Shown in pieces: positions 19,312 through 39,961 of a DNA stretch of 64,000 nucleotides (the stretch's first letter is position 1; every line of letters starts with the position of its first letter). The stretch lies in NCBI RefSeq assembly GCF_054482525.1, contig NZ_CM137006.1, one strand, 5' to 3'. Both the position numbers and the translations under genes were made by a program. Below the pieces are notes generated by a model. That model saw nothing but the letters and a program-made list of their open reading frames with translations, was not told where the DNA came from and searched no databases.

Positions 19312-19875
19312 TCAGTTATGTCGTGGTCGGCCCCGGTTGCTTTTTTCGGGAAGCCTGCTACGGCCCAGAATAATACCGTGTTCTTTCTGATCCTGTTTAG
19401 CCAGGTAGCTAAGGGCGTAACGTAAACCGTCTACCGCAGACTTATCACTATAGTGAATCACGTGATCGATACGCACCGGGTATTTGTCTTTAGTACTGCA
19501 CAGGTGAAAATAACCCTCCCCTTCCGTGATCCGACTCCAGATATCTCCCAGTTGCCTGGATATCCGATAAAATTTCTTGTGACGTTGCCCATCCAAGTAG
19601 CCGATAAAATGAATATGAAGTCCCTTGTTTGACGTATATTCCATTACCCAGTAATATCCCGCCAGCATCGTTTGGGTTTCACTAAGTAAGCGGTGCATTT
19701 CAATACACATACTGTGCCTACAGGAATGACCAAAACTGGGCGTGTCTTTCCTGTAGGCAAAATCAATTCTGAAAGGTAACAGTTTAGAAAAACGTTGAAA
19801 CAGACCTTCCATGTGTTCATTCACGTCTTTCAGAATCATGAAGTCCATTTCGTAATTGGGATTAGCATTATACAT
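19312..19875 (-). CDS. island-associated protein (YfjJ-like / inovirus Gp2-type family, by recollection)
   Basis: 187-aa ORF; character of CP4-57-type island backbone proteins; family assignment from memory only. Confidence 0.45.
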   Translation of the reverse strand: MYNANPNYEMDFMILKDVNEHMEGLFQRFSKLLPFRIDFAYRKDTPSFGHSCRHSMCIEMHRLLSETQTMLAGYYWVMEYTSNKGLHIHFIGYLDGQRHKKFYRISRQLGDIWSRITEGEGYFHLCSTKDKYPVRIDHVIHYSDKSAVDGLRYALSYLAKQDQKEHGIILGRSRLPEKSNRGRPRHN

Positions 19876-20695: not shown

Positions 20696-22147
20696 TCAGA
20701 GGTCAAAGTTAGGTGCGACACACAACGTTTTTCCCTCAATAACCGGTACAACTCTGTTTTGTTCATACAGTAAATCCAGTAACCAGTTGATTTTATCCTT
20801 TTTCCGGAAACGGTTCGGACCACGCTGTAAAATGTCATTTTTTTTCATACAGAGGATCCCCTTCTCAATACAATAGCTTTTTATCCAGTTGAAAAGTTCA
20901 AGCTCCTCTGGAATGAGTCGCACAGGTACGGTCAGGGCAGAGTTGTCAAAAGTTAACGGATTAGACAACCGCACATACTCATTACCGTACCATATTGCTA
21001 ATTCTCTCGCCATTTCTGCAGTGTAAGGGGAAATCTCCCCCTCTTCACCGCTCGAATGGTAAATAAGTCCTGCCAATCTTGCCATATACTCTGCATTTTT
21101 AGCAGCATATTCCCGGCAATGTCTTAAAGGCCCCAATCCCCCCAGCTTCGATTCCACATCATTGTAATAATCCGTCCAGATTCTGGCAGCCTGAGGAGAA
21201 AAGTGAAGGCAACGTCGTTCACCACTCATCGCCAGACTTTCATCAATAAGCTCATTGATCCTCTCTTCAAACAAATCCTGATACTGTGATGAATAATTAT
21301 CTCCGGTTATTATCCTTGTCCCCTGCGTTGATGTTGGTTGACACATCAAAAACCTTGCATGATGTCCTGACGTTTTCACAATTTCTTTTTTTCGCGTACA
21401 AAAACCTTTGTGGTAAACATCAGGCTGAATCATCACCGATATCGTCAGTCTTGGCTCCTTCAAATTAATTCCGGGAGATGATTTCCTGTCGATGAAAAGA
21501 GAACCTCCATCCCACAAAGTGTTAATAATTCCCAGTTTACTCATGGCCCGGCTGTCAAAAATTACCCCCCCTTCACTGGATACAAGAGCAAAAGAGCGAT
21601 TGCTATCGGAGTAATATTTTAACATTCCCTCTATCGTTGTCTCATTAAAAATTGTTCGACGTATCTGCGGCGGAACAGGAGGTTTATTCAGATGCGTTTC
21701 AAGCTCTGATTCTGTTGCCTTGTAATCTTTACCGGCACGAATCTCTTTATGAAATTTTGATTCCAGCGCTTTTTGTTTTTGCTCCCATATTTCCTTTTCT
21801 GTACTGTAATTCTCAACCAGTTTCGCGTATTCTTCCGCCAGGGCTTCATCCCTGAGATAAAATGCTTTCATAAACACTTTATCCACGGTCGTTTTCCTTT
21901 CACCGGAATCAGCCAGAATCAGAGAGTAAAGATTAACAGGCCCATGTAAATTTCCAGGTCTGCATACGTCAATCTGATTCTGACAGGCAATTGAGATCGC
22001 TGTTAATGCGGATGTTGCCACCATAGCCAAAGGTGCCTGTGTATTTTTTTGAGTTTCAATTATTGCATTTCTCACCAGCGGTGGTAGTGCATATATCGGA
22101 TAAGGATTTTCTGGTGCAAGTAAGCACATAAAAGCCTCTCTTTTCAT
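20696..22147 (-). CDS. DUF3987-type (YfjI-like) island protein
   Basis: 483-aa ORF; resembles the large P-loop-less YfjI/DUF3987 proteins found beside AlpA in P4/CP4-57-like islands. Confidence 0.55.
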   Translation of the reverse strand: MKREAFMCLLAPENPYPIYALPPLVRNAIIETQKNTQAPLAMVATSALTAISIACQNQIDVCRPGNLHGPVNLYSLILADSGERKTTVDKVFMKAFYLRDEALAEEYAKLVENYSTEKEIWEQKQKALESKFHKEIRAGKDYKATESELETHLNKPPVPPQIRRTIFNETTIEGMLKYYSDSNRSFALVSSEGGVIFDSRAMSKLGIINTLWDGGSLFIDRKSSPGINLKEPRLTISVMIQPDVYHKGFCTRKKEIVKTSGHHARFLMCQPTSTQGTRIITGDNYSSQYQDLFEERINELIDESLAMSGERRCLHFSPQAARIWTDYYNDVESKLGGLGPLRHCREYAAKNAEYMARLAGLIYHSSGEEGEISPYTAEMARELAIWYGNEYVRLSNPLTFDNSALTVPVRLIPEELELFNWIKSYCIEKGILCMKKNDILQRGPNRFRKKDKINWLLDLLYEQNRVVPVIEGKTLCVAPNFDL

Positions 22148-22347
22148 TAATGGGTTAGTAAAATAGCAGCAAATCCCGCTACAATAGCGAAAATAGCTGC
22201 TATTCAGACCTGATGCTCTGAGAAATACAGAGCATTTGTAGATCTGATGTTTAATAAACCGATAAGGTTAATTCAGTGAAGACTGTATTATTCACCACGA
22301 AATATCATTCATATTTCTCATTCTTAATACCTCCAGAAATTATTTCA

Positions 22348-22680
22348 CTAATACCTTTCCCCCGGTCTTTTCCCTTTCTCCAGAACCATAGTGTAAATAT
22401 TAACGGCCCCACGTAAATTTCCGGGACTGCATACGTCAACCTGATTCTGACAGGCAATTGACATCGCTGTTAATACTGACATTGCAACCAGAGTCAGAGG
22501 TACTTGTTTATTGTATTGAACTTTAATTATTGCATTCCCTATCATTGATGGTCATGCATATACTGAATACGGCATATCCGGTTTGATGTAAGGCATAAAT
22601 GCTTCCTTTTTCGTAATACGTTTCGGTTATAGCAGCAATTACCGCTACAATAGCGACAATAGCTGCTCTTTCAACAATGA
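22348..22680 (-). pseudogene. diverged tandem duplicate of the 5' end and promoter of the DUF3987 gene
   Basis: 22380-22670 aligns at roughly 80 percent identity with 21900-22200; the 65-aa ORF 22348..22545 repeats the N-terminus of the 483-aa protein (VPLTLVAMSVLTAMSIACQNQVDVCSPGNL versus APLAMVATSALTAISIACQNQIDVCRPGNL). Confidence 0.5.
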
Positions 22681-22771
22681 ATGCTGGAAATTCTGTTTAT
22701 CAATTAAACTTCTGGCTAAATTGTTCTTATGCTTCTTTTTCCTCCTGAGGTGATCACGTGATGACAAAAAC

Positions 22772-23080
22772 TTATCTGCTCATGGTCATATCTGAAGAAA
22801 GCGTATGTCTCACTTCGTCATTAACACCTTTGACTGCTGATCTGGCAGGTACAGTATGTAAAGTAAGCCATTCGTCAATAGCTGATGAACGCCAGCCCAC
22901 AGAACCACTACCAAGACGTACCGGCCTGGGGAAGGTTGCATCGTAGTATTTCGATAACGGATTCATTTTTTCGTAAATTGTCGAACGAGATATACCTAAC
23001 AATTGGCTCAGTTCAGGCATCCGTAAGATGCGTGAAGGAGTCCTGCAGTGTCCGGATTGATCTGGCATTTTATCCCCCAT
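22772..23080 (-). CDS. alpA: AlpA-family transcriptional regulator / excisionase-like
   Basis: ORF 22772..23152; the region RILRMPELSQLLGISRSTIYEKMNPLSKYYDATFPRPVRLGSGSVGWRSSAIDEWL matches the AlpA HTH family; start codon uncertain. Confidence 0.6.
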   Translation of the reverse strand: MGDKMPDQSGHCRTPSRILRMPELSQLLGISRSTIYEKMNPLSKYYDATFPRPVRLGSGSVGWRSSAIDEWLTLHTVPARSAVKGVNDEVRHTLSSDMTMSR

Positions 23081-23229: not shown

Positions 23230-23990
23230 TCGATTCTCATTATCATTCATGGCAAAAAAACAGCAAAAGAGGCCCTGGTAATGACTCCTGTCAGTAGTAC
23301 ATGTGTTTTCGATAAATGAACCAATGGCTTTTCGTGAATTTCCAGGGAGCGTAAAAAGTAAATCGTTTTCCGGGCAGGTCGTTTGATGTGAGTACGAAGT
23401 GTCAGATTGTTGCGCTCAATGCGCCGGGTAAATATCTTGCCGACAAGATGCTTATCCTGTGGCATTTCTCTGGTATAACTGCTCCGGTTGTCTCTGGTTA
23501 TCATGCCTGCGGAGAATGGCTTCAGGAATTCCGGCAACTCACGGCATGTTTCATCAGTGCGAGGACCAAAAGTGTAAGCCAGCACACCGTCAGCTTTGGT
23601 CTTATACGCGTACCAGTGCCACTGCTGACGAGCTTTGTTTTCGACAAAACTCCATTGTTCATCAAGTTCACAGATAAGTGCCACATCGACACTGGCGGCT
23701 GGAGATATGGTTACTTTACGTGGTGAGCGTTTTTTAAAGTGAGAATGACGGTGTTGATATCCACCTTCAGCGTTCTGGAGCTATCGCGAACCCCGGCTCC
23801 GTTATGAACCATTTCAACAATTTGCTCTTTAATGCCTGGTTTTCGGGTTTCGTAGATGTAATTCAGTTGAAATACACGTTTGCAGGATTAGCACTGGAAA
23901 CGCTCATGATCTGAGGTGCTGTGATCATAACGGTACACTTTATAGGAATTACAGCGGGGAGAATATACTGTAACTGTTGCCATATGGTCT
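23230..23990 (-). mobile_element. IS1-family element remnant (InsB-like ORF and InsA-like frame with premature stop)
   Basis: ORF 23247..23684 resembles IS1 InsB (ELDEQWSFV..., FTRRIERNNLTLRTHIKR); an upstream minus-strand frame starting MATVTVYSPRCNSYKVYRYDH is InsA-like but stops early; boundaries approximate. Confidence 0.45.
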
Positions 23991-26183: not shown

Positions 26184-27386
26184 TTATTTATTCACAATTT
26201 GAGACATCACATAATCCGCCCATGCCTGCATCATCGGTACACGCTGCTCCAGTAGATCAGTACGATGATATGCCGCCTCAACCTTATTTTTCAGCGTATG
26301 AGCGAGCGCCCTTTCCGCCAGATCCCGCGAATACCCCTGTTCGCTACACCAGTCCCTGAATGTTGAGCGAAAACCATGTGCCGTGGCAACTCGCCCCGGA
26401 ATGTCACTGACGGCTTTCTTTTTACGCAGAAAACTTGTCAACACCATATCGGAAAGGATCTGCTGCTTTCTGGGTGAAGGGAACACCAGTTCATCATGCA
26501 GGCCACGTATATTTTCCAGAATGTAAATAGCCTGCCGGGATAAAGGAACACGATGCTGTAGCCTAGCTTTCATTCTTTCTGCAGGTATAGTCCATACCCG
26601 CTTATGAAAATCAATTTCAGCCCAGCGCATTCCCCTGGCTTCGCCCGAGCGAGTTGCTGTAAGTATCACCATTAATAACAGTGCGCGGGTAACATTATAA
26701 GGTTCATCGGTATACACACTGGTCGCCACAAAAAGCGGTAACTGCCTCCAGGGCATTGCGGGTTGGTGTTCATCACGTCCTCTTGTCTGCTGAGGAAGCA
26801 AATGGTCAACCACATCAACAGGATTTGCTACACAAAAACCGTGCGCCCATCCCCACTGCATAACAACATGAATGCGCTGTTTAACCCGGCTTGCCGTTTC
26901 TGACAAGGTTAACCAGACTGGACGCAGTGTTTCTGCCACGTCCGCAGCCGTAATCGAATCCAGCGTTTTTGCTCCCAGTTGAGGAAACGCGTAATTCTCA
27001 AGCGTCGATAACCACTGCCTTACATGCTTTGGATTTTCCCATCCAGGAGACAGTTCTGCATGTACACGCCTGGCTGCATCGGCAAATGTTGGGATAGCGA
27101 CTTTCTCAGATTCAGCCTTTTTAATCTCCAGAGGATCATCACCTGCAGCAAGTTGCTCTCGCATTATCCGGGCAGTACGTGCAGCTTCAGCAATACTGAC
27201 CTCTGGGTAAGTTCCCAATCCAGCATTACGTCTTTTTTGTGTCACCGGACTTACATAACGAAAAACCCATTTCCCCCGCCCCTTTACTGAAGAAGGATGA
27301 AGGGTCAGTCCGGTAATTCCCCCATGGGGCAATGGTTTGTCATCAGGTTTGATATGTCTTGCTTTCGTATCCGTCAATACTGCCAT
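26184..27386 (-). CDS. int: tyrosine site-specific integrase (P4/CP4-57 IntA-like)
   Basis: 400-aa ORF with phage-integrase C-terminal catalytic region (...HGFRSTFRDW...LAHTL...AYHRTDL); N-terminus lies about 160 bp from the island-end direct repeats. Confidence 0.85.
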   Translation of the reverse strand: MAVLTDTKARHIKPDDKPLPHGGITGLTLHPSSVKGRGKWVFRYVSPVTQKRRNAGLGTYPEVSIAEAARTARIMREQLAAGDDPLEIKKAESEKVAIPTFADAARRVHAELSPGWENPKHVRQWLSTLENYAFPQLGAKTLDSITAADVAETLRPVWLTLSETASRVKQRIHVVMQWGWAHGFCVANPVDVVDHLLPQQTRGRDEHQPAMPWRQLPLFVATSVYTDEPYNVTRALLLMVILTATRSGEARGMRWAEIDFHKRVWTIPAERMKARLQHRVPLSRQAIYILENIRGLHDELVFPSPRKQQILSDMVLTSFLRKKKAVSDIPGRVATAHGFRSTFRDWCSEQGYSRDLAERALAHTLKNKVEAAYHRTDLLEQRVPMMQAWADYVMSQIVNK

Positions 27387-27546
27387 ACGCTAATTCCCGT
27401 CACTCTGGTATGCCATCCAGTATGCCATTAGTCTCTCGCTTCACTAAGAATACATTAGATAATATCGGACAACAAAAAGTGTAATACATTGTTTATAATG
27501 AAATTATATAACACCCCTGGATTAAGTCAGATTTATTTCAGGCGGT

Positions 27547-27606
27547 CCCCCTCACCGCCATATTCAAAGAAGAGCTCGTACGAAAGTGCGAGCTTTTTTT
27601 TCGCAT
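27547..27606 (+). repeat. direct repeat copy 1 containing a tRNA 3'-end-like motif (TCCCCCTCACCGCCA) and a terminator-like hairpin plus T-run
   Basis: Near-identical to 27724-27785 (one substitution and one indel); the ...CTCACCGCCA end resembles the acceptor/CCA end of tRNA-Ser. Confidence 0.5.
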
Positions 27607-27723
27607 ATTGCACTCCAGGGGGGATGAGAAGCCCCGACCGGGGTTCGACAACTGGCGCAGCCAGTTGGACAGACCACGAACGCAGTGAGTGGGCTGCCCG
27701 CAGGGCGAGCGAAGCGAGTCAAT

Positions 27724-27785
27724 CCCCCCCCTCACCGCCATATTCAAAGAAGAGCTCGTACGAAAGTACGAGTTTTTTTTCGCAT
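27724..27785 (+). repeat. direct repeat copy 2 containing a tRNA 3'-end-like motif (AATCCCCCCCCTCACCGCCA) and a terminator-like hairpin plus T-run
   Basis: See copy 1; this copy has a longer match to a tRNA-Ser T-arm/acceptor 3' strand, but no complementary 5' acceptor strand (GGTGAGG) exists upstream, so it is not an intact tRNA. Confidence 0.5.
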
Positions 27786-28083
27786 TTTATCTGCCTGTAC
27801 GGCAGTGAACGGTATAAAAATCGAGTTTTTCTTTCGGTTGGCTTTCTAAGCTGCCTGTACGGCAGTGAACTCAAATACTACACGTCTAGCCCGTTGTTAA
27901 TAAAGCAAAACCATCTCATTTTCCTGCTACCACCCTTTTTTATCCTTACCTTCCCGCAGCACTAATTATCAACAACTTACAATCATCATCAAAAAAAGGG
28001 TCTGAACCTCCTCCACCCCATAAATAAAAAGTCCGTAACCTCTTTCGAGATTACGGACTTCACCAACCTACCTAACAATTAGA

Positions 28084-39751: not shown

Positions 39752-39961
39752 TTACGCTGCCTTGCCTGAATTAATGCGATCCCGGCTTTTAACCCATTCC
39801 ATAACCTCGGACAGCAGCCAACCTACAGAACGACCGCCCAGATTACGGCGTGACGGGAAATTCCCTTTTTTCTCCAGTTCATAGCGTGTAGTGCGACACA
39901 CTCCAGTTAACTTACGACATTCATCCTCACGGATTACGCGATCTTCATTTATTTCACGCAT
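39752..39961 (-). CDS. alpA: AlpA-family transcriptional regulator / excisionase-like
   Basis: 69-aa [60 protein letters not shown]; AlpA-type HTH. Confidence 0.65.

Follow-up and report, generated by a model that had tools for sequence, protein, structure and literature searches.

In the phage-inducible chromosomal island (PICI) EcCICFT073, the AlpA protein activates its own operon, and over-expression of AlpA in this related E. coli island type leads to excision and to replication that needs the pri gene (PMC6092414). The Pf4 phage protein XisF4 binds and activates its own promoter and also the promoter of the phage replication initiator gene (PMC7379572). Here, we describe a 64,000-nucleotide stretch of E. 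coli genomic island DNA (assembly GCF_054482525.1, contig NZ_CM137006.1; the whole stretch is called the window below), in which an alpA-like gene is followed by yfjI, encoding a DUF3987 helicase-like protein, and in which a nested palindrome stands upstream of yfjI. The alpA-yfjI-yfjJ gene set ranks among the most frequent backbones of genomic islands in enterobacteria; CP4-57 of E. coli K-12 has it, as does the island of the window, carried by about a quarter of complete E. coli genomes. To our knowledge, neither yfjI nor yfjJ has an assigned role or a described cis site. We tentatively favour the view that the palindrome acts in cis as a DNA hairpin or cruciform, a putative origin-type site of a module made up of AlpA, the DUF3987 helicase (YfjI) and often the HUH-type protein YfjJ.

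The palindrome occurs twice in the window, once in each copy of a diverged repeat. All features of the repeat region read on the minus strand, and together with the genes of the module they are arranged as follows.

22165..22201, minus strand: nested palindrome A, AGCAGCTATTTTCGCTA-TTG-TAGCGGGATTTGCTGCT, ending 36 nt upstream of the intact yfjI start
22631..22667, minus strand: nested palindrome B, AGCAGCTATTGTCGCTA-TTG-TAGCGGTAATTGCTGCT, ending 35 nt upstream of ATG 22596 of the yfjI pseudogene fragment
21913..22204, minus strand: repeat copy A, made up of palindrome, leader and the start of intact yfjI (~72 codons, from ATG 22129)
22380..22670, minus strand: repeat copy B, comprising palindrome, leader and a decayed yfjI 5' end, 77.6% identical to copy A
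20696..22129, minus strand: intact yfjI, DUF3987 helicase-like (Pfam PF13148, E 3e-84; 'YfjI family protein' in RefSeq)
22348..22596, minus strand: yfjI' pseudogene fragment, starting at ATG 22596, with an in-frame TGA at 22554-22552 (codon 15)
22772..23068, minus strand: alpA-like regulator gene, 98 aa, PF05930 (Pfam E 5e-19; 52% identity to K-12 AlpA)
19312..19875, minus strand: gene of a YfjJ/YagK-like protein with HUH-type motifs, named 'inovirus Gp2 family' in RefSeq (Gp2-like below)

Two aligned blocks make up the repeat, 21913-22115 against 22380-22582 (203 nt, 78% identity) and 22131-22204 against 22597-22670 (74 nt, 74%), with a 1-nt indel between them. The original prediction, that 22380-22670 repeats 21900-22200 at about 80% identity and that each copy carries a nested palindrome, was confirmed by local alignment of the two copies, which extends over 290 columns at 77.6% identity with a score of 151, against 10.3 ± 1.3 for 500 shuffles (z ~108); the similarity is not the product of low-complexity chance. 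The pattern AGCAGC-N6-CGCTA-N3-TAGCG-N6-GCTGCT has exactly two matches in the 64-kb window, at the positions of palindromes A and B (1-3 nt from where they had been placed), and none in 100 shuffles. The palindromes agree at 34 of 37 positions, compared with 70-78% for the remainder of the repeat. Both can form hairpins on both strands, the fold of palindrome A on the two strands having z-scores of -5.1 and -4.5 as RNA and energies of -11.6 and -11.5 kcal/mol as DNA. A second palindrome, GTGATCACGTGATGAC, which contains GATC and CACGTG, lies at 22750-22765, right after the stop codon of the alpA-like gene and ~85 nt before palindrome B, and has no counterpart at copy A.

The palindrome of each copy is a member of a family with the consensus GCTATT-N3-GCTA-loop-TAGC-N3-AATAGC. 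Each arm holds two GCTA boxes, in some cases three, with a period of 9 bp, and the arms are inverted around a centre of 3-4 nt; the perfect dyad (CT)GCTATTTCCGCTA-N3-4-TAGCGGAAATAGC(AG) looks like the ancestral form. In CP4-57 of K-12, a homologous hairpin, GCTATTTCCGCCATTAATAGCGGAATAGC, lies between alpA and yfjI, and islands of Yersinia ruckeri and Klebsiella michiganensis carry the palindrome beside a YfjI only ~40% identical to that of the window. The family was hunted by DNA-pattern scans of genomes and viral contigs, plus an alignment-based scan of viral contigs. The pattern scans located it in nine viral contigs and in about 30 species genomes, comprising many Enterobacterales, at least seven Pseudomonas, one of the Thiotrichales and one of the Nitrosomonadales; its range reaches the Betaproteobacteria, and at least 120 metagenome contigs also carry it. 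The palindrome is thus conserved in homologous islands well beyond E. coli. In 23 distinct enterobacterial sequences, which we term K-type, it is the best conserved block of the alpA-yfjI intergenic region and always lies 47-49 nt from the ATG; its spacer is 3 or 4 nt long, and the K-type carries a 1-nt deletion in one arm.

A sample anchored on protein, and so not biased by the motif, consisted of 40 DUF3987 loci from IMG/VR. Here, the motif search found the palindrome in 14 of the 40, namely in all loci at 40% identity or more, in two of the three at 39% and in one at 31%. The third locus at 39% (L114) has a decayed copy, and from the more distant DUF3987 loci of this sample the palindrome was absent by the same search. 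Rfam covariance models gave no match even at permissive E-values, only sub-threshold chance matches to microRNA hairpins, and no description of the palindrome was found in the literature searched. As far as Rfam and that literature go, the family is apparently undescribed.

The metagenome scan fixed the boxes only (GCTATT-NNN-GCTA-N3-4-TAGC-NNN-AATAGC; at least 120 loci) and left the 3-nt connectors free. Loci were called module-associated if an open reading frame (ORF) for an AlpA, DUF3987 or Gp2-like protein lay within 2.5 kb; there are 65 such loci among the matches listed, to which the counts on pairing and position below also refer. The connectors are fully Watson-Crick complementary in 34 of these 65, where chance would give 1.6%, and they come in nine paired versions (CAC/GTG, CCC/GGG, CCT/AGG, CGT/ACG, GCT/AGC, TCC/GGA, TCT/AGA, TGT/ACA and TTT/AAA). 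In many loci the stem is prolonged by flanks of unrelated sequence, giving arms of up to 24-25 bp, and the extended flanks, those of L061 included, bring to light a third GCTA box that keeps the 9-nt period. The protein-anchored sample adds independent double changes, from CC/GG to TT/AA at L112/L113 and from TTTCCG to TTCCTG on both arms of L119. Pairing in this inverted repeat is under selection, as would be expected of the hairpin or cruciform origin of an HUH protein. The loop varies (CTAA, TTCG, TTTG, TTG and others), and only the GCTA and GCTATT boxes are conserved. On sequence grounds, conserved boxes joined by freely covarying connectors are the probable signature of a hairpin that is read by a protein.

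An AT-rich variant (GCTATT-ATA-GCTA-3-nt loop-TAGC-TAA-AATAGC and similar) was seen at L148, L150, L157, L161, L183, L216 and ~25 other metagenome loci among the matches listed. Its connectors are imperfect, there is no AlpA, DUF3987 or Gp2-like ORF nearby, and it may be an unrelated repeat or a coding sequence that happens to fit the search pattern.

The mismatches that remain in the stems bear on the question of DNA or RNA. In 47 co-directional loci, the non-Watson-Crick cells are G.T in 19 cases, A.C in 15 and transversions in 6, that is, mostly transitions with no bias towards the sense strand. A functional mRNA hairpin would be expected to tolerate G.U and avoid A.C on its sense strand, and this pattern was not seen. 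The RNA hairpin of the sense strand is the more stable one in 23 of 37 distinct sequences, which comes down to ~5 against 5 independent lineages. For the window copies, the sense and antisense RNA folds reach -24.6 vs -20.9 and -20.3 vs -16.1 kcal/mol, and with DNA parameters the two strands fold equally. Because the mismatches have no strand bias and both DNA strands fold equally well, the evidence points to an element that acts as DNA, as a cruciform or on either strand, and not as mRNA.

Every locus scanned, K-12 CP4-57 included, has one copy of the palindrome per island; the window has two because two diverged modules have fused, as set out below. The palindrome is always intergenic and inside the alpA/DUF3987/Gp2-like gene set, and its position is otherwise free. 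Among the 65 loci, it stands before alpA-DUF3987 in ~22, after DUF3987 and before Gp2 in ~18, between alpA and DUF3987 in nine (the enterobacterial layout), in a divergent region in five and between Gp2 and DUF3987 in three. Where the sequence extends at least 2.5 kb to both sides of a module-associated palindrome (full-size module loci, n = 21), DUF3987 lies within 3 kb in 20, AlpA is present in 19 and a Gp2-like gene lies within 3 kb in 12. Palindrome subtype tracks the subtype of yfjI/yfjJ and not that of AlpA. Beside one and the same palindrome stand two AlpA subfamilies whose recognition helices differ (SRSTIYDW or SRSTAWKLE), and it is found with K-12/Pseudomonas-type and with L003/L005-type AlpA; the 98-aa AlpA of the window is a divergent member of the SRSTIYDW subfamily. 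The Pseudomonas loci L095 and L080 have the palindrome with no AlpA ORF in 8-11 kb, no AlpA ORF was found in the sequence examined around the palindromes of L060, L065, L051, L079 and L090, and L126 has a K-12-type AlpA with no palindrome.

Some loci carry further repeats near the same genes. In Pseudomonas L061, L063, L096 and L069, a conserved leader precedes a zinc-ribbon/glycine-zipper gene, 30-100 nt from the palindrome; this gene heads a DUF932-YqaJ cluster that is divergent from alpA-DUF3987. Within the leader, an inverted repeat, GCAATGACAT...ATGTCATTGC, overlaps the start codon and may form a hairpin that controls translation. In Acidovorax, L099 has a different inverted repeat with 18-bp arms, CTCATTGCGAATGATCTC-aaa-GAGATCAATTGGAATGAG, at 1934-1972, just upstream of its alpA-DUF3987-Gp2-like genes. 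It occupies the Pseudomonas position of the GCTA-box palindrome and may be a functional analogue with another sequence.

The palindrome had been proposed as an operator for the adjacent AlpA-like regulator. That it is a conserved cis element holds, whereas the assignment to AlpA sits poorly with two AlpA subfamilies at one site, loci that lack AlpA, a free position and a covarying stem. Taken more broadly, a duplex site through which a transcription factor (AlpA itself, a host factor or some other protein of the island) turns the promoter of the neighbouring replication genes on or off is conceivable, since AlpA-family proteins bind replication-gene promoters in other elements, namely Pf4 (PMC7379572) and the PICI (PMC6092414). 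The commonest layout puts the palindrome upstream of alpA-DUF3987, AlpA accompanies nearly all full-size modules, and in Pseudomonas the palindrome is found in a divergent intergenic region. In Enterobacterales, the fixed distance of 47-49 nt to the yfjI ATG leaves no space for a promoter downstream of the palindrome, and with the T-rich, -10-like hexamer that follows 14 nt downstream as the reference, the dyad would be centred near -41. We nevertheless consider such a site unlikely. It would be a single site per island instead of one per regulated promoter, with a downstream gene that varies (alpA, DUF3987 or Gp2) and with the palindrome often after DUF3987, and its subtype follows yfjI/yfjJ irrespective of which AlpA is present or whether one is. 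A spacer of 3-4 nt, the 1-nt arm deletion of the K-type and covariation at connector and flank positions that a bound protein would not contact are not expected of a duplex operator. Nor is there a conserved promoter consensus: a sigma-70 promoter scan with manual search found no conserved -35/-10 elements. The palindrome does not recur upstream of other island genes, given one copy per island and no extra half-sites elsewhere in the window. Among host factors, LexA, Fis, boxA, ops and other consensuses were compared by reasoning only and gave no convincing match. In a published table, yfjI is listed among previously identified targets of the AsnC-family regulator YbaO/DecR (PMC6237786). The AlpA antiterminator of P. 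aeruginosa is reported to fold like phage 21 Q without sequence similarity (PMC9371919); an analogy to it was dropped, as this phage 21 Q-like fold was taken to place that protein outside PF05930.

Two further explanations dispense with a DNA-binding protein at the site. The palindrome could act as an RNA hairpin in an alpA-yfjI transcript, as an attenuator in the intercistronic region or 5' untranslated region, an RNase III or other processing site, or a stabiliser of the mRNA. The two genes are co-oriented with a short spacer, the window's sense RNA folds better by virtue of G.U pairs and of a U.G to G.U swap between the copies, copy A is followed by AUUUU, and the stem covaries strongly. 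This is quite improbable in the light of the mismatches: G.U and A.C on the sense strand are near balance, at ~5 vs 5 independent events. Moreover, the U-tract is unconserved even in close relatives and absent from the K-type and from B copies, the loop has no constant orientation with respect to the genes, divergent intergenic sites exist, no Rfam family matches, and a generic stabiliser would need no conserved stem sequence. An intrinsic terminator was rejected for the same want of a U-tract, as ATTTTAC occurs in copy A only, L004, L105 and L106 have ACTTTAC, and copy B and the K-type have no T-run. Alternatively, the palindrome might have no dedicated function, being a selfish or neutral repeat kept symmetric by template switching and serving as a shared patch of homology for module recombination. 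Template switching yields perfect and extended palindromes, modules have been swapped with breaks exactly at the palindrome edge, and alpA types have been exchanged upstream of an unchanged palindrome. We regard this as improbable, because the GCTA boxes and the GCTATT ends have been kept from E. coli to Betaproteobacteria in otherwise diverged surroundings, because the palindrome is the best conserved intergenic block of the K-type sequences, because the copy that precedes a dead gene fragment is still 92% conserved, and because the palindrome is bound to one gene module with one copy each.

A candidate origin-type DNA hairpin remains the interpretation that we prefer. In this scheme, the module would be switched on, by AlpA for example, and the palindrome would be extruded or melted, exposing conserved GCTA boxes to recognition by the island's own replication proteins. 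The HUH protein would bind and nick there, and/or the helicase would be loaded, and replication of the excised island would start from the palindrome; binder, nick and start are all putative. As in an origin core of the SV40 (simian virus 40) site II type, inverted arrays of short boxes stand at regular spacing beside a helicase gene. Within 40 nt of the palindrome, the AT content exceeds background by only 5-10%.

The proteins of the module lend this scheme its candidate enzymes. Homologues of DUF3987 are often fused to primase domains, and some sources label them primase/helicase. In the Gp2-like family (YfjJ/YagK), the R-D, E, H-x-H, W and Y..K columns are near-invariant, and we take them to be the three motifs of HUH Rep nucleases. 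K-12 YfjJ scores above the Pfam cut-offs of both PF23343 and PF11726, and the window protein is sub-threshold for both (21.4 bits against 27.8, and 16.3 against 25.8). Its AlphaFold (AF2) model has a predicted local distance difference test (pLDDT) score of 77.7, and the best fold matches of the model include the origin-binding nuclease domains of parvovirus NS1 and adeno-associated virus (AAV) Rep, as well as Prim-Pol, at E-values from 2e-3 to 4e-2 and template modelling (TM) scores of 0.3-0.43. A PDB sequence search with Gp2 and DUF3987 profiles gave no match. Within the phage collection, a YfjJ homologue (36% identity) is encoded by a single record, L145 (OR844780.1, 'Escherichia phage ECO111 5-P', 4468 bp), an unverified, low-coverage contig without annotation that most likely comes from a host island and not from a small phage.

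Several observations weigh against an origin. There is no conserved nick motif in or beside the hairpin, because the loop is short (3-4 nt) and variable. The partner genes and the palindrome also occur apart: barely more than half of the full-size modules (12 of 21) have a Gp2-like gene within 3 kb, L063 and L096 lack it near the palindrome, and Gp2-like genes without a palindrome are found in L100, L102, L103 and L115/116. The motif stands without any of the three genes in the sequence examined at five genome loci (L051, L060, L065, L079 and L090) and at ~55 metagenome loci among the matches listed. In the plasmid and phage collections we found no small plasmid or phage that uses a Gp2-like protein as its Rep, only large plasmids that carry the whole island and one unverified 4.5-kb contig. 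The fold matches of the Gp2-like model are weak (E 2e-3 or worse, TM at most 0.43), the fixed enterobacterial spacing of 47-49 nt to the yfjI start would fit a promoter element too, and arm-to-arm template switching could maintain perfect palindromes without selection. As to a nick, an IncP-type nic site was considered and rejected: CATCCTG|C stands immediately 5' of K-type copies, which is the wrong side of the repeat, and it is not found outside Enterobacterales.

Taken further, the palindrome would be the replication origin of an unrecognised two-protein replicon, consisting of the DUF3987 helicase and a small HUH Rep akin to pII of filamentous phages and to parvovirus Rep, and carried by islands with P4-type integrases across Proteobacteria, the 'cryptic' CP4-57 and an O157:H7 island among them. 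We regard this fuller version as possible, though rather unlikely. If it were true, AlpA-triggered excision would be followed by autonomous replication of the island from a cruciform origin, in parallel with the origins of eukaryotic viruses (SV40 site II and the AAV Rep-binding element). The palindrome names a piece of DNA on which the module proteins could act, making island replication after excision testable. If it proves instead to be bound by a regulator, the palindrome would supply the DNA target that has been missing for the induction of islands under AlpA control.

The palindrome is, moreover, the exact border along which island modules are swapped, and this accounts for scars such as that in the window. 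The original prediction described a diverged tandem duplication of the DUF3987 gene 5' end; two diverged copies, each preceded by a palindrome, are indeed present, whereas duplication in situ is not supported and copy B is a pseudogene. The segment that separates the copies is informative here.

22205..22347, minus strand: junction segment between the copies, its proximal ~60 nt being the decayed 3' end of an L003-type alpA

This segment was aligned to the alpA 3' ends of L105 and of the unduplicated island L106. It contains a hairpin at 22214-22236, just upstream of palindrome A (8 bp, ATGCTCTG-N7-CAGAGCAT, -17.4 kcal/mol, z -5.2), at the same place as the hairpin that ends L003-type alpA genes; there, a T-run comes after it, and it looks like the terminator of alpA itself. 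The unduplicated relative L044/L106 has another alpA type, one palindrome and then a full yfjI of the window type. Copy B belongs to a separate lineage: the B type of palindrome lies directly after alpA in L003, L004 and L105, and in L003, a thrW island, the gene is cut by an IS10-like element. Given the decayed alpA 3' end between the copies, the unduplicated L044/L106 and the separate B lineage, the window is best read as carrying a scar where two diverged alpA-palindrome-yfjI modules were fused. Of these, the upstream module has kept its alpA and lost its yfjI, now a pseudogene, and the downstream module has kept its yfjI and lost its alpA. Similarity between the window copies begins at the left edge of the palindrome, and in the window lineage the upstream alpA was later exchanged for one of a third type; the break of this exchange lies at the left edge of palindrome B.

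The arrangement is widespread. Two copies (at least 80% query coverage) are found in 1024 of 5426 complete E. coli genomes, O157:H7 included, and the whole arrangement is 99.9% identical across many genomes though the copies are 22% diverged; L004 has the same two-copy arrangement in a variant that is 87% diverged. A recent tandem duplication in situ does not fit the 22% divergence within a widely shared arrangement, nor the alpA remnant, the unduplicated L044/L106 and the B lineage of L003. Differences between copies A and B are spread evenly over codon positions (29/18/26), as expected if copy B is dead.

The intact yfjI starts at ATG 22129 in the Prokaryotic Genome Annotation Pipeline (PGAP) call and is preceded by a Shine-Dalgarno-like GAGAGG; the mechanical ORF starts at 22147. 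A residual 65-aa ORF at 22545-22348 in yfjI' is annotated in RefSeq as 'DUF3987 domain-containing protein'. For the rest of the island, a locus (L001) that is 99.9% identical is annotated in RefSeq with the order integrase, 605-aa hypothetical protein, IS1 remnant, helix-turn-helix/AlpA-family regulator, 65-aa DUF3987 protein, YfjI family protein and inovirus-type Gp2 protein. This annotation supplies two further features.

26184..27386, minus strand: island tyrosine integrase gene
23291-23983: IS1 transposase remnant, frameshifted, between the 605-aa hypothetical gene and the alpA-like gene

ARAGORN found no tRNA in the window. Near the end of the integrase gene (27505-27870), there are two Rfam CRISPR-DR4 (RF01317) matches on the minus strand, 60 nt apart, at 27843-27870 (50.1 bits, above threshold) and 27783-27810 (29.7 bits), along with a near-threshold match to RtT RNA at 27604-27740 (41.3 vs 45 bits) and a weak MicC-like match. 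A second AlpA-family ORF at 39782-39952, on the minus strand, is 42% identical to the L003 type and has no GCTA-box palindrome nearby; it suggests a further island or prophage module within the window.

The palindrome is not assignable to any one of the known systems that it resembles. Site II of SV40 and polyomavirus and the E1-binding site of papillomaviruses share with it a palindrome of ~27-31 bp in which four short boxes form two inverted pairs around a small centre, beside the gene of an initiator helicase and in one copy per replicon. The boxes of SV40 site II are GAGGC at 6 bp, whereas here they are GCTA at a 9-bp period in bacterial islands, and the complementarity of connectors and flanks suggests extrusion of a hairpin, which sets the palindrome apart from both viral sites. 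The Rep-binding element in the inverted terminal repeat of AAV also has tetranucleotide boxes within a hairpin stem and is served by an HUH nuclease and a helicase, both putative here. In AAV, these are joined in one Rep (HUH-SF3) and the element lies at the genome end, whereas the islands have separate genes and an internal site in double-stranded DNA.

Rolling-circle origins, such as those of the Ff phages (pII) and of pT181 (IR-II), pair an extruding inverted repeat with an HUH-type initiator, and the neighbour here bears the name 'inovirus Gp2 family'. There is a resemblance between the M13 nick region cTTTAATAGTGGAc and cTATTAATAGCGGAa, although the match is short and may be chance. These origins differ in that the loop here is short (3-4 nt) and variable, without a conserved nick site. 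We know of no single-stranded DNA stage or small replicon for these islands. The promoter sites of AlpA and excisionase proteins, as in Pf4 XisF4 and the EcCICFT073 AlpA, likewise combine an AlpA-family gene with neighbouring replication genes (PMC7379572, PMC6092414). The binding sequences are undefined in these two reports, and the site described here is single-copy, independent of AlpA subtype and also present without AlpA. Repetitive extragenic palindromic (REP) elements with their REP-associated tyrosine transposases (RAYTs), and the subterminal hairpins of IS200/IS605, are conserved imperfect palindromes recognised by single-tyrosine HUH enzymes, to which the conserved one-base bulge of the K-type may be compared; REPs, however, are dispersed in hundreds of copies per genome, as opposed to a single copy in one island module. 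By analogy of layout, the palindrome thus appears closest to the initiator-helicase origins, the AAV Rep-binding element and the extruding repeats of rolling-circle origins.

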